The notes below the pieces were generated by a model. The model had not been told where the DNA came from and ran no database searches. It saw nothing but the letters and a program-made list of their open reading frames with translations. Both the position numbers and the translations under genes were made by a program. DNA of 38,615 nucleotides, from the IMG/VR virus record IMGVR_UViG_3300002461_000316, positions 1 through 38,615 of that record; one strand, written 5' to 3'. Origin of the DNA: a virus. Shown piece after piece: positions 1 through 38,615 of this stretch; the stretch's first letter is position 1; the number at the start of each line of letters is the position of its first letter.

Positions 1-81
1 TCATGCTGCCGGTACACCCGAACGCCCAGGACGCGCTCAGAGCGATCCCGTTCACGGTGAGCGAGCAGAAGGTCTACGCGG
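1..81. repeat. Terminal exact direct repeat, left copy (identical to 38535..38615)
   Basis: Base-by-base comparison: tcatgctgccggtacacccgaacgcccagg...gagcagaaggtctacgcgg occurs at both window ends, 81/81 identical. The window cuts both copies, so the true repeat length is unknown. Confidence 0.97.
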
Positions 82-320
82 CGTTTCGCGCGCTCAGGGG
101 CCGCCTACGCAGGCCAGGGCTGCACATCCACGACCTTCGTCACTCCCTCGCCTCGGCCCTGGTGTCGAGCGGAGCGACGCTGCCCGAGGTCGGGGCGATG
201 CTGGGCCACAAGGCAGTCCAGTCCACAAAGCGCTACTCGCACCTGTACCCGGCCCGCGTGGCCGAGATCGTCGGCCGGATCGTTGTGCGAGAAAAATTGA
301 CCGGACCTGGCAAGAAATGA
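3..320 (+). pseudogene. int: Tyrosine recombinase (phage integrase), C-terminal ~105 aa only
   Basis: The translation contains the C-terminal catalytic motifs of tyrosine recombinases: HIHDLRHS (His-x-x-Arg), MLGHKAVQST and KRYSHL (catalytic Tyr). The N-terminal and Arg-I region is missing. When the ends are joined, the same frame is closed by TGA at 38444..38446. Confidence 0.8.
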
Positions 321-647
321 CGTCTGCAACGCTTGTTGCGCTTGATTCGCCCTATGAAGCGCTTGTATGCAGGGAGCGCGAAACGGACTTAAAATCCCTC
401 GCTCGCAAGGGCATGCCGGTTCGATTCCGGCCCCGGGCACCACGGAAAAACAACGGGTTACGCGGGGTCGGGGTGTTCCACGTGGAACGTGGTGTGCGAG
501 AAGATCTGACCGACCGATGAGCGCCGACACCCAAACGATGCTCGCGACCCTAGCGACCGCCGACCTCGCACGACTGGACCGATTCGCCGCCTGGGCGACC
601 GCGAACCAGGGCGCGCCCGGGCTTGATGTGCTGCTCTGGGCGGCCGA
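321..647. other. attP-like non-coding region between the integrase stub and the lysis cassette
   Basis: No convincing CDS. Three direct CGCTTG[TA][TA] repeats lie at 330-337, 339-346 and 360-367. The region holds the tRNA 3' fragment (385-442) and a perfect 14-bp palindrome, GTTCCACGTGGAAC, at 475-488. Confidence 0.5.
385..442 (+). tRNA. Partial tRNA-Leu(UAA): anticodon loop to CCA end only (att core candidate)
   Basis: Anticodon loop cTTAAAa, anticodon UAA (388-394). Long variable arm gctc-gcaa-gggc (401-412). T arm gccgg-ttcgatt-ccggc (415-431). Acceptor 3' strand cccgggc, then discriminator a and CCA (432-442). The upstream sequence does not supply a matching 5' acceptor strand (gccctat versus the required gcccggg), U8, or a canonical D arm. 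Confidence 0.7.
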
Positions 648-827
648 CTACCGCCGGGCAGAGTTGCGCTTGTCCCAGATCGACCACGCCACGCCGGCGA
701 GCGCCGCCAGCCCTCCCACGATCGCGTCCATCGTCGCGCCGTCAACGCCGTAGCGAACGGCCAGGCCGCCACCGATGGCGGTCAGAAGGTGTCGGGCCAG
801 AGCGGTCACGATCGCGGCGTTAAGCAT
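648..827 (-). CDS. Small membrane protein, holin/pinholin-like (59 aa)
   Basis: ATG at 827. MLNAAIVTALARHLLTAIGGGLAVRYGVDGATMDAIVGGLAALAGVAWSIWDKRNSARR has two Gly/Ala-rich hydrophobic segments and a basic C-terminal tail. It is the last gene of the lysis cluster. Confidence 0.55.
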   Translation of the reverse strand: MLNAAIVTALARHLLTAIGGGLAVRYGVDGATMDAIVGGLAALAGVAWSIWDKRNSARR

Positions 828-847
828 CGGCGGATCCTTGGGGTCGG

Positions 848-985
848 TCACTTCAGCCACCTGTCGAGGGCAGCGCTGATCAGCTTCACCGCCCACAGGC
901 CGCCGGCGACGCAGCCGGCACCGAAGGCGACGCCGCAGATCGCGGCGAAGAGGACGGCCAGGAAGCCGATCGAGAATCCGCTCAC
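848..985 (-). CDS. Very hydrophobic 45-aa membrane peptide (lysis-cassette member)
   Basis: GTG at 985 overlaps the endolysin stop (GTGA). VSGFSIGFLAVLFAAICGVAFGAGCVAGGLWAVKLISAALDRWLK. It is the 3' part of track ORF 848..1153, whose upstream part overlaps the endolysin in another frame. Confidence 0.5.
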   Translation of the reverse strand: MSGFSIGFLAVLFAAICGVAFGAGCVAGGLWAVKLISAALDRWLK

Positions 986-1461
986 AGAGAGCTCGCGTAC
1001 TGCCAGGCCTGGGCGTAGAGCCGGGGCCAAGTCTTTTTCTTCGGCAGGCCAGGGTTCCAAGCCAAGAGGTACTGCTTCCAGGCGCCCTCGACGTCGTCCG
1101 GCCCCGGGATCGCCGTCGGCACCCACCACAGATTGAGGCGGGCGAAGCAGCACGCCAGGATGTCGTTGTGCTCGACTGCCGCCCAGTAGTCGACGACCGG
1201 GTCTTTCGAGTCGTACCTCAATGCCTCGAGCACGGCCAGGATATGCGGCCGAGTCGCCCGGTGCGTCAGCACGCCCCTGATGCCGGCCTGCTCAAACTGC
1301 CAGAACCCCCTCGCGGGACCATTGTGCAGTTGCCGACGATGCTCGCAGCGGCTCTCCTGCAGGGCGATGGCGAGCAGGTTCGCCCGCGCCTCGATCGAGT
1401 TCATCCTGGGGGGCAGGAGTGTCATTGCCGCATCGTAGATCGGGCCGTACGCCAGTTTCAT
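982..1461 (-). CDS. Endolysin, lysozyme-like / lytic transglycosylase (SLT-like) fold
   Basis: ATG at 1461 (ATGA overlap with the upstream gene). MKLAYGPIYDAAMTLL...LLAIALQESRCEHRR...GPARGFWQFE carries the Glu-Ser catalytic motif typical of SLT-type muramidases. It sits between small membrane proteins. The long 329-aa track ORF is an upstream extension. Confidence 0.7.
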   Translation of the reverse strand: MKLAYGPIYDAAMTLLPPRMNSIEARANLLAIALQESRCEHRRQLHNGPARGFWQFEQAGIRGVLTHRATRPHILAVLEALRYDSKDPVVDYWAAVEHNDILACCFARLNLWWVPTAIPGPDDVEGAWKQYLLAWNPGLPKKKTWPRLYAQAWQYASSL

Positions 1462-1736
1462 CGCGGCTTCTCCATGGGTCGGTCGATCTTGTGAGCCAGC
1501 GTCCGCAGTGCCTCCTCGATCCTGACCTGCGCGCGGATCTGCTCTTCGTCCTGCCGGCGGTCGATGTCTTTCTGCAGGACGATGGCGGACTCGAGCATGG
1601 ACACCCGCTTGTCCAGGGTCGTGTACGCGTAGATGACAGCCAGCGCTGCCGACAGGAACGCGAGGATGTCCCCAAGACTCACCTCTCGCTTCAGGGTCCA
1701 CTTGCTCATTTCGCTCCGCATGCTGTTTTCCCTCAT
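1458..1736 (-). CDS. Single-TM protein with coiled-coil C-terminus (holin or i-spanin-like), 92 aa
   Basis: One TM segment (LGDILAFLSAALAVIYAY) is followed by a charged helical region (QKDIDRRQDEEQIRAQVRIEEALRTLAHK). ATGA overlaps occur on both sides. Confidence 0.5.
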   Translation of the reverse strand: MRENSMRSEMSKWTLKREVSLGDILAFLSAALAVIYAYTTLDKRVSMLESAIVLQKDIDRRQDEEQIRAQVRIEEALRTLAHKIDRPMEKPR

Positions 1737-2368
1737 GGCTGCAAAGAGGCCTGGCTGTCGAGCCAGTAGTGCTCTTCGTCGACGACGGCCTGTGGCGACC
1801 AGATCTGGATCGGCGACACGTCAATGGTGGGGGCCGTGGGGTAGATGAAGTCGTACCCGAATCCCACGTAGTGCCCTGTGTCCAACACCTTGCCGACGGG
1901 GAACTGCGGCAGTCGCACGCTCCCCTCAACGCGGGTCCAGTGCGTGCCCACAGAGACGCCAGGGCATTCAATGATTTGGTAATCGCCCGTGGAGTAATTG
2001 ATCCAAAATATGGGCACCACGTACAGATCGCCGGACGCTACCCGCAGCGCGCCTCTGTAGCTCACATCCGAGCCGACCAGCTCACGCGATTTGTACATGT
2101 GGTGCTCGAGCCAGGTCCACCGGCACTGCGGCAAGTACTGCGTCTCCCCTTGTGTGGGCATGGCGGTCCAGCGCATCCGCATGAAGTACTCGGGGTTGCC
2201 GGGCACCTCGGTCTGCCCGACAACAAATGGCACTCGAGTGACCTCGCACTCGCCGCCAACACCAGAGCCCGCCCAGAACTTGTTGGCGATCCAGGCGCCG
2301 CCATCCTTGATGCGAACGATGCCCGGAGGGGCCTGGCGATACCGGCTGTTCACAACGTAGTTGCGCAT
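1733..2368 (-). CDS. Tail-fibre-associated protein (distal fibre / receptor-binding or assembly), 211 aa
   Basis: ATG at 2368 overlaps the tail-fibre stop (ATGA). It lies directly downstream of the fibre gene, and the sequence is beta-rich and Trp/Tyr/Gly-rich. Function is inferred from position only. Confidence 0.4.
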   Translation of the reverse strand: MRNYVVNSRYRQAPPGIVRIKDGGAWIANKFWAGSGVGGECEVTRVPFVVGQTEVPGNPEYFMRMRWTAMPTQGETQYLPQCRWTWLEHHMYKSRELVGSDVSYRGALRVASGDLYVVPIFWINYSTGDYQIIECPGVSVGTHWTRVEGSVRLPQFPVGKVLDTGHYVGFGYDFIYPTAPTIDVSPIQIWSPQAVVDEEHYWLDSQASLQP

Positions 2369-3933
2369 CAGGCGAACTCCGCGTTGACGTAGATCCTGGC
2401 GTTGGCGTTGGCCGCATACAGCAGGCACCCGTCTCCGGCAGTGCGCACCGCACCGATGTCGCCACTGAGAACGGCCCTGTCGCGCTGCACCGTGGCCACG
2501 GTCGCCGACAGCGACGTCATGGCGTCGTTGGAGGTCTGCGTGGCGCAGAAGAAGTGGGCGGCCGCGCTGACGGTGATGGTTGGGCGAATGCGCTTGCGCT
2601 CATACTGGACGTTGAACGCGCCCGTGTCGGTGTCTGTCATGCGGCCTGCGCCGAACTGCGCGTTGACAACCCCGCCATCGCCAAGCGTCTCGAAGAACTG
2701 CAGGCAGCGGTCCTCGTCCACATCCCAGGGCGGCTCGACGATAGGGATGTCCGCGACGCCGCTGGCGGCAAGCCGCACGCCGGCGACCTCAAAGTGGTCG
2801 TTCGCCCCGGCGGTCCCGGTCCACAACGCCTGGAAGCCCAGCGCCACTTGGATGGCCGTGCCGTTGAGCGCCGCGCTCACGAGGCTGAACTCCTGCCAGG
2901 CCGTCGTGAGGGTGACGTTGGTGTTGAGAGCCGAGACGCTGCCCGTCCATGCCCCGCTCTCGACAGCGGTCGCGCTCTCGTCCCCCGCGGTGCCGGTGGT
3001 AAGCGACACCGTCAGAGTCGAGCCGGCCGTCGAGTAGCCAGACCCGCATCGCGCCCAGAATCGAATCGTGGTTGCCTTCCCCGATAGCAGGCGCGATACG
3101 TTCGACGGCAGCACAGTGCGGAAGCGGGTATCGCCGACTGTCGCCCCGGCGTTGCGCGTGATCCGCGCGCACGACAGGTAGGGCGCTCCTGGCCCCGACT
3201 GCTGCGCCGCGGTGACGTTGCCGGTCACGCCGCCGTTCTGGAAGCAGTACCAGCGCTGGAACACGTAGCTCACAGCACTGGCGACCGGGTTGTGCGAGGT
3301 GACCGTGGGGTCGCGCATGAAGTTGAACGCGCCGTTGATGAGCACATTCTGCGCGCCGACCTCTTGCAGCCCGAGCGTGATCCTCGCGGCGCCTGCGCTG
3401 GCGTCGTCGAGCACGGTGCGGATGAAGGCCGTGACCGTCATCAGCGCCGCCGTGCCAGAGCCGGTGAAGTACGGGGCCAGATTGGCGCCCGACGCCAGGC
3501 CGGCGAGCGCCGACAGCTCAGGATCCGCTGCGACGTTGAACGAGAAGACCATCCAGCGATTGGCTGCGAGGTCGGTGGCAAACACCCCGGCCGTGTGCCC
3601 CTCCAGGCAGACGTAAGTGTTCCCGCCCTGGGCGACCAGATCTAGGGCGGCGTAAACCGTCGCAGGGCCCCAGTTGCCTCGCGGGCGGAACGTCGAGTTC
3701 ATCAACGCGAGCACGTCTGGGTGCAGCGTGTGCATCTTGACGACCTGGTCGCGCAGCTCATCGTCATCGCGCTGGATCACCGCGAGGTTCGCCAGCAGCG
3801 CAGCAATCGTCGCTTGCAGCGCACTGAACTCAGCGTCGAGCTTCGCCGTGTTCACCGTGCTGCGACCGGACGTACTGCCGGCCTCCTCCTGCGAGAAGTC
3901 GGTCGTCGGGTTGTAGGCGGGGGGCTGACTCAT
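2368..3933 (-). CDS. Tail fibre protein, 521 aa
   Basis: The N-terminus (MSQPPAYNPTTDFSQEEAGSTSGRSTVNTAKLDAEFSALQATIAALLANLAVIQRDDDELRDQVV) is the conserved anchor/coiled-coil type I recall from proteobacterial phage tail fibres. The C-terminal part is Gly/Ala/Thr-rich. ATGA overlap with the giant gene. Confidence 0.7.
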   Translation of the reverse strand: MSQPPAYNPTTDFSQEEAGSTSGRSTVNTAKLDAEFSALQATIAALLANLAVIQRDDDELRDQVVKMHTLHPDVLALMNSTFRPRGNWGPATVYAALDLVAQGGNTYVCLEGHTAGVFATDLAANRWMVFSFNVAADPELSALAGLASGANLAPYFTGSGTAALMTVTAFIRTVLDDASAGAARITLGLQEVGAQNVLINGAFNFMRDPTVTSHNPVASAVSYVFQRWYCFQNGGVTGNVTAAQQSGPGAPYLSCARITRNAGATVGDTRFRTVLPSNVSRLLSGKATTIRFWARCGSGYSTAGSTLTVSLTTGTAGDESATAVESGAWTGSVSALNTNVTLTTAWQEFSLVSAALNGTAIQVALGFQALWTGTAGANDHFEVAGVRLAASGVADIPIVEPPWDVDEDRCLQFFETLGDGGVVNAQFGAGRMTDTDTGAFNVQYERKRIRPTITVSAAAHFFCATQTSNDAMTSLSATVATVQRDRAVLSGDIGAVRTAGDGCLLYAANANARIYVNAEFA

Positions 3934-6900
3934 CGCTGCTGCTCCTCGAGCTCGTCGTTGTACTTGCGCAGAGCGCGTGCCATGAGGGTGGCCTCGTCAC
4001 GCTGCAGTAGCCGCCGCTCCTGCGCACGCTCCTCGCGCGGCAGCTCGTCGACAGCTCGTATTTTCTTCGACAGGTTGCTCATTTCACGCCGATATTGCTG
4101 GCTTGAGATCTCGCGCGCCATCGCCAGCAGGGGCGCCTTCTCGTCGCGGATCCTCTCGGCACGCTCAATGTCACCGTCCTGCTCGTAGCCCTTGAGCAGC
4201 TTGAGCGCCCGGGTGGCGTCGTCGCGCAACCGGTAGTACTTCGACGCCAGGTCGCGGTCATCGACTTGGCCGTAGAACTTGCCGACGAACGGCACGCGGC
4301 GCGCCGGGTAGTCTTCCGGCTCGGCCTCGCCCAGCGCGCGGTTGACGGTGTGCCGGGAGAAGTCGAGCATCACCATCCCGAACTGACCGACGCCGCCGGT
4401 GGCGGTCTTCACGATGTGCTCGATCGTGGTCGGCGAGATGTCGATCGCACCGCCCTCGCGCTCGGTGCCGCCGGTCGCGGCCGACAGCCAGCGCGTGAGA
4501 TCCTTCGCCGTGTCGCTCGTCGAGCGGAAGTACAGCTGGTGGTCGGGCTTCGGGCCGCTCTGCGGGAACGGCTCGGGGCGCATCGGGCTGCCGAAGAAGG
4601 TCTTGTTCTCGGTGAACTGGACGAACGGGTCGGCGATCGTCGGTGCCGCGTACTGCATCGGCGTGGCGGTCTGGCCGAGCGGCACAAAGCTGTCGAGCGC
4701 GGTCTGAGTAAACGACCAAGCGAAGTCGATCGGCTTCTTGCGCTCCTGCACCAGGCCGCTGCCGCTGGCAGTAAGGATCGCCTCGGTCATCAGTCGGCCG
4801 GCGTTGTGGAAGACGTTGAAGCCGTACGGCAGCGGGATCTGGATGTGCTTCCCGTCGCGCATCATGAAGATCATGTTCCTCTGACGCACATGCTCGGGGA
4901 TGAGCTCGTAGCGCAGGTTCCCGTCCTCGTCCCGGTCGTCGTCGCCGAGCATGCGATTGACGAGCTCGAGGGCCGCGGCGAATGCGACCATCATGCCGGC
5001 GTACATACGGGCACGGCGAGACGTGGCGACGGCCTGCACCAGGCGCGCGGTGCCCTGCACGCTGGCGTTGAAGAACATGTACCAGGCATTGGCCGCGACG
5101 CTGCGGTTGCCCTTGCGGTTGAAGTTGACCGTCATGTTCTTGGCGATCGAGGCGGCCCGCTTGGGCGAGAGCCCCATCTTGCGCGCCTCGGCGAACGCCG
5201 ACAGGCGGATCGCGTTCTCGATGGAGTTGTTGGCGAGCTCGACGTACTCGAGCGCCTTGTGGCCCATCTCGCGCGGGTCGAGCCGGCTGCGCTTGGCGCG
5301 CTCGAGCAGCTTGCCGATCTCTGCCTGCCGGTCGAGCAGCGTGTCCCACATCTGCATCCAGCCGGTCTGGCCGCCGCTGTCTTGGAACTCGCGGTAGGTC
5401 TGCGCCCAGGTCGAGGTGCCGTCGCCCTTCTCGGCGTTCAAGACGCCGCGCATGGCCCGCGGGATGTTGGCGATGACCTGCGGCGCCCTGCCCTTGAGCT
5501 CGGTGTCCTGCAAGTTGACGGCCGCGGTCTGCACGTCGCGAGCGAAGTTGGTTACCCAGAACTGCGGGTTGTAGGTCGTGACCAGGTTGGCCATGACTCG
5601 AGTGATCCGCCCGACGACCTTGGTAACAGCGCCCAGCTGGACGACGCCGAGGTTGTTCATGGCGCTGGCAATCGCCATCGCCCGCTCGTTCGACGGGTTG
5701 AAGGTGATCACCCGCTCGACGATCTCGCCGTTGGCGCCCTTGTCCTTGACGATGAAGACGTCATCGCGCTGGCGCCACATGGGGTCGATGCCGGTCTGCA
5801 CCAGGCCCGTCGTCGGGTTGACGGTGCGCTTGGTCGGGGGCGTGTCGAGCCGCCAGAAGTCGGGGTTGGGGTTGTCCTCGACCATCTTGATGAGCGCCCG
5901 CCCGACCGTCGCCCGCTCGGCGCGAATGATCGCCCGCTCATGCTGCGAGATCACTGCCGCCAGGATGGCGATGGCCTCCTTCTGCGAGCCCAGGGCGCGC
6001 TTCGACTCCTTGCCGGACACCTTGAACCCCTGCCCAGCGGAGGGCGTGTCGATGTCGCGGAACAGCGGCACGTAGTTCTGGTAGGCGCCGCCCCATGCGT
6101 TGATCGTGGCCTGCGACTCGAGGCCTTCACTGACGAGGATCTGCCGGGTCGCGGCGGTGATCCCGTCGACCATGCCGGCGAGCCGGTTCAGATCGGTCAT
6201 GCGCCCCGCCCGGCGGAACCCGGCGATGATGTCGGCGGCATTGGCCGCACCCGGGTTGCCGTCGCGCGCAGCCGCGGCCGCGTCGTCGTACAGGCCCGAG
6301 AGATTGCCCGGCGCGCCCGGGTTGATCTTCGCCATCTGCTTGTTGCGCTCGGGGGCGTGGCGCGCCCAGAGGTACTTGCCGAGATCCTCTGCGCTCACCT
6401 TGGCGTCGCGCATCGCCTCGAGCAGAGGCTCGATGTGTGTGCGTGCCGCCTTGTTCACCCGAGCGCTCACGCGCCCGTGGTAGAGCTCCTCGGCCAGGTA
6501 GGCGTCATTGCCCTCGGTGATGAGGCCAGCGGCGCGCTTCATCTCGTCGCGCACCCGCTTGACGTCGATGAACCGGTCCTGCCACTCGCGCACCCGCTTG
6601 ACGTCGATGAACCGGTCCTGCCACTCGCGCAGCAGACGATCGACGAGCGCCGGCTCGTTCAGTCCGTAGGTTGGGGCGGCAGCGGCTCGCGGTCCAGTCG
6701 GTCGTCCACCGACAGGTCGCTGTCCGGCAGGCTGCGTACCTGCTTGAGGTGCTGCTCCCACTCCGGGTCGGGGCGGCCCTCTTGGAGCGCCCGGTCCAGT
6801 CTGGTTTGCAGCTCGATCGGCCCCTTGCGAGACTGGCTGGCGTTCTTGAGCGCGTGCGCTGGCACCTTGCTCCGAAAGCGCTTCACGTAGGCGCTGATGG

Positions 6901-28564: not shown

Positions 28565-28836
28565 CCCATTGCTCCGAATCGTGTGCCCGTGCGCAGGAAG
28601 CCCGTGCGAGGGCGTGGTCGCTTCATCGAGCTGCGGTGCCCGCCCATGTGGTAGAGCCCGCAGAACTCGCACTTGTACGCGCTGACCCGCCCAGCATCGG
28701 GACGGCGCAGGATCGCGTCGGTCGGGTTGAGGAACACCCGCTTGCCCTGGCACTCGACCAGGCGCCGGCGCTCCCGGTGGATGTGGGCCTCGAGCTTCTC
28801 GATCACCTTGGCCCAGTCGACCTGCGCGCCGCTCAC
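28561..28836 (-). CDS. Hypothetical small protein with CxxC motif, 91 aa
   Basis: GTG at 28836 overlaps the RuvC-like stop (GTGA). ...ECQGKRVFLN...YKCEFCGLYHMGGH. Confidence 0.45.
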   Translation of the reverse strand: MSGAQVDWAKVIEKLEAHIHRERRRLVECQGKRVFLNPTDAILRRPDAGRVSAYKCEFCGLYHMGGHRSSMKRPRPRTGFLRTGTRFGAMG

Positions 28837-29360
28837 GCCGCGAGCTCCAGCTTGGGCCGCTCGCCGAGGAACGAGTCGGCCAGGCGGGACTGCTGCGCGC
28901 CGTAGCGGGCCAGGAGGATCGCCTCTGCCCTGCCGTGGTCCTTCTTGCGCGCCAGCGCTTCGCAGCCCGGGTACAGCCGGATGGCCGCGGCCCGTGCCGC
29001 GTTCTTGTCGCTGTCGAGCGCGTAGGAGCGCTTCCAGGTCTTCGGATGCACGCGCTGCACCGAGAGACCGATCGCTTCGCACACGCCGCGGATGCAGCCG
29101 CGGGTGTCGCCCAGGCTGAACATCGAGCTCACGCCCTGCCCTGGCATCGCGCCGACTTCCTCGATCCACACCTCGGCGATGTCGACGACATGCAGCCGCA
29201 GAAGCCTGGCGAGTCCGACGCCGTCGACCTCGTTGGCCTTGCGCGCCTTCTTGCCGGCGTCGCGGATCGGCATGTCGACCACCCACTGCAGCGAGCCGCT
29301 CGGCGTGACGGCTGCGAGTGCCCCGGTGATGCCCGGATCGATTCCCACGATCAGTCCCAT
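28833..29360 (-). CDS. RuvC-like Holliday junction resolvase, 175 aa
   Basis: MGLIVGIDPGITGALA carries the RuvC N-terminal catalytic Asp motif. It has a central acidic residue (EEVGAMPGQG) and C-terminal GRAEAILLARYG. GGAGGTGG SD upstream of ATG 29360. Confidence 0.75.
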   Translation of the reverse strand: MGLIVGIDPGITGALAAVTPSGSLQWVVDMPIRDAGKKARKANEVDGVGLARLLRLHVVDIAEVWIEEVGAMPGQGVSSMFSLGDTRGCIRGVCEAIGLSVQRVHPKTWKRSYALDSDKNAARAAAIRLYPGCEALARKKDHGRAEAILLARYGAQQSRLADSFLGERPKLELAA

Positions 29361-29557
29361 GCTGCCCACCTCCACTGTTCGACCTCCTGTCGCGTCGCCC
29401 GACGAACCATTCGCCGGGTCATCACGCTGGGGTACTGCCGGTGCTCGAGCACAGGCGCGCCGCGCTTGATCACCTCCACAACCTTGCTCATCGTGCTCGG
29501 CTCCGGGGGCGTCGCGACCCATGCCACGCCGTCGGCATCGAAGACGATGTCGATCAC
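29351..29557 (-). CDS. Hypothetical protein, 68 aa
   Basis: GTG at 29557. Overlaps the RuvC-like start by 10 nt. No recognised motif. Confidence 0.4.
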   Translation of the reverse strand: MIDIVFDADGVAWVATPPEPSTMSKVVEVIKRGAPVLEHRQYPSVMTRRMVRRATRQEVEQWRWAAWD

Positions 29558-37453: not shown

Positions 37454-38116
37454 ATGACCACCAAAGGCTTCAGGATCGTCGAGCAGGACGTCGAGTTCAC
37501 TCACATGAACACCCGACTCGAGAAGAACGGCCCCAACGAGAAAAAGAACGCCGTCGATCTCACGATGTCCATCCAGATGGAGAACGACGTCCTCGATTCG
37601 ATCCTGCCTGGACTGCGCACTGCGTTCTACGCCAAGCCGAGCAAGGATGACATCGGCGACCTGGCCGACCAGGGCAAGATCGATCGCCCGATCCGGCTGA
37701 AGTACCCCGCCCTCGCGGTCCAGTCCTTCGACAGCGAGTGGGTGAACTACACCCTGGCGTTCCACTACGGGATCGACGGGGAGAGCGACGTCGTCCTCGA
37801 GGACTGCACCGTCAAGAGCATGAAGATCGAGCTCCACGACGGTGGCACGGTCGACATCAACTGGAAGGTCGGAGCGCACCCGACCGACGACCAGTACGCT
37901 GTCCTGTCGGAGCGACTGCGCACCGGTAAGGTCCAGATCACCCTCGTGAAGGCCAAGCAGGTCGAGAAGCAGAAAGACCTGCTCGACAACGAGCCGGTGC
38001 CGAACCCGGTCGCCGCTGCGGCGAACGACGATGAGGTTCAGGCCGACTCGATGGCGGCAGCCCTGGCCGCACTGCCCGCCGATCAGCGGGCCGACGCAGC
38101 CTCGAGCCTGGGGTAG
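37454..38116 (+). CDS. Hypothetical early protein, 220 aa
   Basis: ATG at 37454 with AAGGA upstream. MTTKGFRIVEQDVEFTHMNTRLEKNGPNEKKNAVDLTMSIQ.... The 325-aa track ORF is an upstream extension. Confidence 0.55.
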   Translation: MTTKGFRIVEQDVEFTHMNTRLEKNGPNEKKNAVDLTMSIQMENDVLDSILPGLRTAFYAKPSKDDIGDLADQGKIDRPIRLKYPALAVQSFDSEWVNYTLAFHYGIDGESDVVLEDCTVKSMKIELHDGGTVDINWKVGAHPTDDQYAVLSERLRTGKVQITLVKAKQVEKQKDLLDNEPVPNPVAAAANDDEVQADSMAAALAALPADQRADAASSLG

Positions 38117-38118
38117 TC

Positions 38119-38355
38119 ATGGACAGGCCACGCTGCGTCACATGTGGGCGCTACTTCAAGCACGAGGCCGGCGTGGCGTGGCGAATGGTCTACTCGGGCG
38201 GCCCGCTGCCCGAGCCAGACCACGAGGCCTACCGTTGCCGGCCTTGCGTCGAGAAGGTCGGCCCGTTCGACCCGCAGCCGGGCATCAGGCCCGAGTTCTC
38301 CTGCGGCATCGTCAAAGAGATCGGGCACGTGGAGTCCTGGGAGGGAAGGCAGTGA
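38119..38355 (+). CDS. Zinc-ribbon-like small protein, 78 aa
   Basis: MDRPRCVTCGRYFKHE...YRCRPCVEKVG carries CxxC...CxxC. Confidence 0.5.
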   Translation: MDRPRCVTCGRYFKHEAGVAWRMVYSGGPLPEPDHEAYRCRPCVEKVGPFDPQPGIRPEFSCGIVKEIGHVESWEGRQ

Positions 38356-38594
38356 GCGAAGAACTGAGGAAGGCGGCGCGGGAGTTGATCAAGTCGCTTC
38401 GACGAGACGCCGATTGCCAGGCGATGGAATTTAACGGCGAAATTGAGGCAGTAGAAGCCGCCCTGGCCGCGACAGAGCCGTGCCCTACGTGCGGAGGTTT
38501 TCACCGGGACTGCGGACTGACAACGACGCCCCGCTCATGCTGCCGGTACACCCGAACGCCCAGGACGCGCTCAGAGCGATCCCGTTCACGGTGA
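38352..38594 (+). CDS. Small early protein whose 3' end reads out-of-frame into the integrase-stub / terminal repeat, 80 aa
   Basis: GTG at 38352 (GTGA overlap). VSEELRKAARELIKSLRRDADCQAMEFNGEIEAVEAALAATEPCPTCGGFHRDCG... continues as ...SCCRYTRTPRTRSERSRSR inside 38535..38594, in the +1 frame relative to the integrase stub. Confidence 0.45.
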   Translation: MSEELRKAARELIKSLRRDADCQAMEFNGEIEAVEAALAATEPCPTCGGFHRDCGLTTTPRSCCRYTRTPRTRSERSRSR

Positions 38595-38615
38595 GCGAGC
38601 AGAAGGTCTACGCGG
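38535..38615. repeat. Terminal exact direct repeat, right copy (identical to 1..81)
   Basis: Same 81-mer as 1..81. Implied unit length is 38,534 bp. This fits a circular or terminally redundant genome, or an attL/attR pair. Confidence 0.97.

Follow-up and report, generated by a model that had tools for sequence, protein, structure and literature searches.

An intact tRNA-derived attP beside an integrase remnant in a complete phage genome: probable scar of a xis-int deletion

The closest described arrangement to the one considered here is the module of lambda-type temperate phages in which xis, int and attP follow one another, the integrase gene being the last of the early operon and adjoining attP; where a tRNA gene is the target, the attP core is the 3' part of that tRNA and the arms contain direct repeats. 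Defective prophages and ex-temperate phages can carry integrase pseudogenes and deletion scars, and lambda int mutants can be complemented by a helper integrase. Cis-mobilizable elements (CIMEs) have kept their att sites, have lost their integration genes and use the integrase of an integrative and conjugative element, ICE (PMC5704250).

The stretch of DNA analysed (the window, 38,615 bases) is the whole of an IMG/VR virus record. Like the lambda-type module it has integrase sequence last in an early operon (cI-like HTH, YqaJ, RecT and onward to int) and adjoining attP, its core is a tRNA 3' part (58 nt) with direct repeats in the arms, and the full-length allele found in the same project is likewise preceded by an HTH_17 excisionase-like gene. 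Unlike that module the window has neither xis nor two thirds of int, the integrase family is divergent (best homologue 58%) and Pfam covers only the last 65 residues even of the full integrase of this family. With the scars of defective prophages it shares an integrase 3' fragment beside att, an out-of-frame ORF fusion and nonsense in a second copy, but its setting is different: a circular phage from a metagenome, complete and apparently replicating, whose other modules look intact. As in CIMEs and lambda int- phages there is an att site without integration genes, with an element carrying the cognate integrase in the same community, and what marks an att-only (CIME-like) element, an att site with neither integrase nor excisionase of its own, is present; CIMEs, however, are integrated remnants between attL and attR, whereas the window is a complete phage for which mobilisation in trans is hypothetical, and neither attL or attR nor a tandem junction was recovered here.

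In all likelihood the window is the complete, closed genome of a xis-int deletion variant of a lambda-like temperate phage with a host among the Burkholderiales, and it would not integrate unaided. The feature itself is an ordinary deletion scar beside an intact attP, with little new biology in it. Sibling contigs came from a metagenome scan with window positions 1-60, which led to two contigs of the WGS set LNFM01 (L016 and L017), and from exact-protein look-ups, which led to MEGAHIT k127 contigs of PRJNA301005, an activated-carbon metagenome. The features referred to below are these:

1..81, the same as 38535-38615, no strand: 81-nt terminal repeat, no physical genome end but an assembly by-product
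3..320, plus strand: integrase 3' remnant, 105 codons from ATG and up to 124 from GTG at 38480
330..367, plus strand: three direct CGCTTGWW repeats (starts at 330, 339 and 360), located in the P arm, after the int stop codon and ahead of the core
385..442, plus strand: attP core, the 3' 58 nt (anticodon stem to CCA) of a tRNA-Leu(UAA)
443..462, plus strand: tRNA trailer-like stretch AAAAACAACGGGT, partly conserved in the attB flank of a metagenome-assembled genome (MAG) and in L017
475..488, no strand: perfect 14-bp palindrome GTTCCACGTGGAAC, in the P' arm
667..672, plus strand: fourth CGCTTG (GTTGCGCTTG), in the P' arm, the core lying ~225 nt to its left; the 10-mer is the same as at 335-344
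38352..38594, plus strand: chimeric small ORF of 80 codons, seen in translation and called as an 80-aa gene in contig L019
38512..38521, plus strand: deletion junction, GCGGAC (38512-17), a 6-nt match to the full integrase gene, then 4 nt with one match
38522..38615, plus strand: start of the integrase remnant (94 nt), closing the record at its 3' end; 38535-38615 within it repeat 1-81

Positions 1-81 recur at the far end of the record, which is of the DTR class with a CheckV completeness of 100%; the circular unit is 38,534 bp long, with a GC content of 65.8%. The closure of the circle holds, the join 38534->1 being read through by an independent MEGAHIT k127 contig, L019 (8,069 bp; run SRR2905840), which matches the window over 37522..38534->1..6592 with three mismatches (99.96% identity) and carries, uninterrupted and in this order, the small ORF, the integrase remnant, attP and the holin gene. 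Since L019 comes from a different run, both the junction and the closure are supported by a second data set. One of the three explanations offered in the original prediction, which had been made from the sequence alone, was that the missing 5' part of the integrase gene lies just outside the window. That is refuted for this record, because the window is the whole record and L019 crosses the join; and where a full-length integrase ORF was to be looked for upstream of position 1, the circle gives an in-frame TGA at 38444-46, 30 codons upstream of the remnant ATG, and integrase homology only from 38513.

In CheckV/IMG-VR practice DTR contigs are taken as complete circular genomes, and the window is like them in having identical sequence at both ends. 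It differs from the usual case in that its repeat is not the k-mer overlap of a closed path but would come from a 94-nt entry into a shared stretch. The stretch in question, of 107 nt (38522-38534 plus 1-94), is common to the window, L016 and L017, and the two window ends, an end of L016 and an end of L017 all extend into it by exactly 94 nt; the 81-nt repeat can be understood as the product of a K=95 graph (94 + 94 - 107 = 81).

On the minus strand, from ~32.6 kb down to 0.65 kb, are a P22 Cro-like gene, a DUF1376 replication gene, the small and large terminase subunits, virion genes, a tail fibre gene, an endolysin-like gene and the holin gene, and on the plus strand from 32.7 kb an XRE-type HTH gene, a YqaJ exonuclease, RecT and several orphans are followed by the int remnant. 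By this layout the remnant and attP lie where lambda keeps xis-int-attP. The annotated phage collection held no close relative: tblastn with the remnant gave at most 56% identity over half of its length and blastn with the early region gave two trivial matches only, while a 220-aa neighbour protein had no relative in IMG/VR and was absent from the MAG considered below and from 401 genomes of its order. Two minor features of the minus-strand block may be recorded. At 6586-6596, inside a 2132-aa virion gene, L019/L022 and L021 have ~39 extra bases, an in-frame repeat-number difference in this giant protein, and at 28833-29370 on the minus strand an ORF starting MGLIVGIDPGITGALAAV looks like a RuvC-type Holliday-junction resolvase, with no Pfam match at E 0.01.

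That 3..320 encodes only the His-x-x-Arg, LGH and Tyr part of a tyrosine recombinase, as originally proposed, is borne out. The remnant matches PF00589 at profile positions 106-170 of 172 (E 2.6e-12), keeps His-II-x-x-Arg-II, His/Trp-III and the Tyr nucleophile in HDLRHS, LGH and RYSHLY, and equals residues 232-336, the last 105, of a full integrase of 336 aa. In a scan of 1.84 billion representative proteins its best homologue was P0001 (340 aa), residues 224-324 of which align to it at 58% identity, and its homologues are full-length integrases of 330-348 aa to whose last ~100 residues it aligns. Arg-I, in the LRWR of the homologues and of the full allele, falls ~20 residues before the remnant start and is missing from the window; where 7/7 homologues and the full allele have TKN, with the catalytic Lys of the beta-hairpin, the window has TDN (38516-38524), the Lys codon falling on the deletion junction. 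A tblastn search of the doubled circle with residues 1-223 of seven homologues, for the N-terminal part, gave nothing better than E 0.1. The picture of an attP whose integrase has lost its N-terminal two thirds, Arg-I included, is thus upheld, with the loss put at ~225 aa where roughly 250 had been estimated.

A caution attaches to the profile match. The full 336-aa integrase (in contig L021) also matches PF00589 at 106-170 only, its N-terminal 250 residues being without a Pfam domain, and because the full-length protein gives identical coverage the partial match is not in itself proof of truncation; by profile coverage alone, all members of this divergent integrase clade would look truncated. 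At the level of sequence it is the alignments that prove the truncation. IMG/VR yielded distant integrases only and no exact copy of the 5' end of the full integrase, and exact-product look-ups for the 81-aa holin call, the 105-aa remnant and the PAPS reductase brought nothing new. Of the three mismatches in L019 one falls in the remnant, where it changes GAG to TAG at codon 62 (window position 186); the frame is thus decaying and not under selection. The remnant is without arm- and core-binding domains, Arg-I and the beta-hairpin Lys and therefore should not recombine DNA: to judge from what it encodes, the frame of 105-124 codons is a pseudogene incapable of recombination.

No replacement was found for what has been lost. 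The six-frame PF00589 search of the window gave a single match, the remnant, and so no second tyrosine recombinase; six-frame HMM searches for Resolvase (serine recombinase), rve transposase and ParB gave no match, in keeping with the earlier statement that no other recombinase, transposase or partition gene is to be seen. Nor is there a clear excisionase in the window, HTH_17 giving only a sub-threshold 13.8 bits, in the early region.

The att site, on the other hand, is in good order. All 58 nt of the core are identical to a locus of a Burkholderiales MAG (JALHQN010000006.1; L003 354-411) at which ARAGORN calls an intact 87-nt tRNA-Leu(taa) and the integration site looks unoccupied, so the recognition of a tRNA-Leu(UAA) 3' part at this place was correct. 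In the window ARAGORN and Rfam report no tRNA; for this reason the 5' half is taken not to be tRNA, as had been noted, and a complete tRNA there was rejected. The likeness to the MAG persists for ~13 nt beyond the CCA, and after ~462 phage, L017 and MAG fully diverge. Since the 13-20 nt past the CCA (AAAACAACRRGT; window 443-462, L017 443-462, L003 412-430) are partly conserved in all three, the functional att site may extend beyond the tRNA.

The three direct repeats between int and core, also part of the original description, are real and are identical in L017 and L021. The window has nine copies where 3.7 are expected, and three CGCTTG within 45 nt were reached in 7/300 shuffles, a modest clustering; these CGCTTGWW repeats are candidate arm-type Int binding sites. 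The 14-bp palindrome to which attention had been drawn is indeed perfect, but such palindromes number six in the genome against 4.6 in shuffles, and as a functional site it was rejected, its frequency being at the level of chance.

At the other side of the join, uninterrupted identity to the full-integrase contigs begins at 38522 (by alignment and column table), tblastn placing the start of integrase homology at 38513-38522 (RTDNDAPLMLPVH at 38513), and the breakpoint 38521|38522 is in unique sequence, separated by 13 nt from the 81-nt repeat. The small ORF consists of ~57 native codons (38352-38521) and then 23 codons that run through the integrase remnant in another frame; it is the left side of the deletion scar. 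It had no Pfam match and no homologue in a search set that apparently lacks the proteins of the window's own sample, and in the same set nothing was found with a query in which the native codons run on into the ORF, cut at its 5' end, with which L021 begins; given that gap in the set, these negatives carry no weight. Direct adjoining of 38521 to the first base of L021 was rejected, as the reading frames disagree. A Logan contig, L020 (run SRR2905841), ends exactly at 38521, which probably marks the branch point of a second continuation. Among the contigs none carried the undeleted left side, the sequence past 38521, and for this reason we infer the deletion from the scar, from L021 and from the end of L020.

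Full integrase sequence is present in the same project in more than one setting. L016 holds a PAPS reductase gene, an HTH_17 excisionase-like gene (PF12728) and the first 257 integrase codons, including LRWR (Arg-I) and TKN, and ends with the 81-mer; L017 starts with the 81-mer, is 97.4% identical to window 1-462 and then diverges. The int-attP module, 97-99% identical, is common to a second, unrelated mobile element. A third contig, k127_115755 (run SRR2905841; our L018 and L021 taken together), of 39,982 bp, opens with small genes, xis and the 336-aa integrase, its first base lying 1,405 nt ahead of window position 1, and then runs through attP, holin and the whole phage to end with the small ORF and the remnant, stopping at position 82. 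In it the full integrase (L021 13617-14624) adjoins the same attP and holin as in the window, and the 10.5 kb of L018 show no mismatch to the window. We read this contig as a backbone shared by an int+ form and the deleted form, each of which probably contributes a dead-end tip.

At positions 95, 96, 98, 125 and 173 the full integrase always has G, C, C, T and C and the remnant always C, A, G, C and A. Within 166 nt the two differ six times, each time synonymously, the last 105 residues being identical, and the rest of the genome is nearly identical between the int+ contig and the window; because of the six synonymous differences the remnant is not a very recent offshoot of this particular full allele. 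Over 187-348 the L017-type and L019-type sequences are the same, and as these 162 nt exceed k=127 the link of the full integrase to the phage arm in L021 could be mis-phased; junction abundance and phasing across shared stretches rest on contigs.

The event that would best account for all this is a deletion from an int+ ancestor. It would have spanned at least ~1.4 kb, taking the excisionase gene and the first ~225 integrase codons, with its right end at 38521|38522 and the microhomology GCGGAC 4 nt to the left, and the cut would have joined the small upstream ORF, out of frame, to integrase codon ~226. The resulting variant should be unable to integrate or excise alone, its course being lytic growth or abortive lysogens unless Int and Xis were supplied in trans. 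Of the explanations first put forward, a defective or ex-temperate phage is the one that fits best.

Might Int and Xis in fact be supplied in trans, in line with the helper integrase that the original prediction allowed for? An int-less phage with a competent attP, served by a co-resident sibling or by the second element, would be capable of helper-dependent lysogeny, and such a reading adds function to the deletion without contradicting it. The attP is intact, its P arm and core being 97-99% identical to those beside the full integrase, the last 105 residues of that integrase are exactly the remnant protein, xis together with full int is found in at least two settings of the project (L016/L017 and L021), and the CIME concept offers a precedent (PMC5704250). 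Yet the link between phage and helper is co-occurrence in one metagenome project, their sharing of one cell being hypothetical; no hybrid junction contig (remnant-core-foreign flank, or tRNA 5' half-core-phage arm) was found among the contigs, and the nonsense mutation and the scar are equally compatible with plain decay. We regard helper-dependent lysogeny as unlikely. Its stronger form, in which the variant would be a stable att-only temperate phage that uses the Int and Xis of its sibling or of the L016/L017 element and integrates by accretion at that element's att site, is a quite improbable proposal; were it true, such a phage would be the counterpart among phages of a cis-mobilizable element.

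Accretion might also be taken literally, as a single tandem molecule of the kind that k127_115755 displays, with xis and full int, attP, the whole phage and then the remnant at position 82, and the split of alleles at 95-173 would be expected if two elements had crossed over at or near the core. L019, however, has remnant, core and phage arm in succession, which is the free or concatemeric form, no contig pairs remnant and core with a foreign flank, and the stop of L020 at 38521, on an inference from unitig ends, indicates a second continuation that a tandem does not predict. The ends of k127_115755 may equally well be the dead-end tips of two variants on a shared backbone. A tandem molecule is highly improbable.

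Even less credence can be given to the notion that the real phage has only a full integrase and that the joining of small ORF and remnant is a chimeric path through a repeat. It is true that the terminal repeat is an assembly by-product at the 107-nt shared stretch, across which the IMG/LNFM01 assembly could not phase. But the breakpoint is in unique sequence 13 nt short of that repeat, the join is present in the assemblies of two runs (L019 and L018) at k=127, which exceeds the 107-nt stretch, and L019 ties it to an allele of its own with a private nonsense mutation. Finally, that the remnant is a functional short protein, for instance a C-terminal catalytic-domain fragment modulating a helper integrase, is barely credible, for although the frame is open over 105-124 codons with a coding-like GC3 of 0.83 and retains His-x-x-Arg, LGH and Tyr, the copy in L019 has a stop at codon 62, the parent gene accounts for the high GC3 and the frame is overlapped by the out-of-frame tail of the upstream ORF.

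With the deletion variant as the preferred reading, the practical interest lies in the lifestyle and completeness calls made on viral contigs. Automatic pipelines would score a 100%-complete DTR contig that has a cI/Cro-type switch and an integrase Pfam match as temperate, despite which this genome would be unable to integrate unaided, and its completeness is certified by a terminal repeat which is itself the by-product of a repeat found in other contigs too. The biological value is modest: a natural polymorphism, in one activated-carbon community, centred on a single exchangeable xis-int-attP module, with int+ contexts on one side and a genome with int deleted on the other, which would allow trans-complementation between mobile elements to be tested.

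Two further observations concern the neighbourhood of the module. On the minus strand of L017 (630-9398) a SNF2-like protein of at least 2922 aa stands in place of the phage lysis genes. Five neighbouring small genes, those for PAPS reductase and xis and three orphans, start with an identical 17-mer, RTGARCGAGCGCCTGAG (VSERLS.../MSERLS...), with copies at 875 and 1843 of L016 and at 169, 330 and 569 of L021 (reverse complement). The point at which L016 and L021 diverge is exactly one copy of it, at the start of xis, and the small ORF of the window (38352) starts with a degenerate copy, GTGAGCGAAGAACTGAG; the shared 17-mer may mark a module boundary at which elements recombine.
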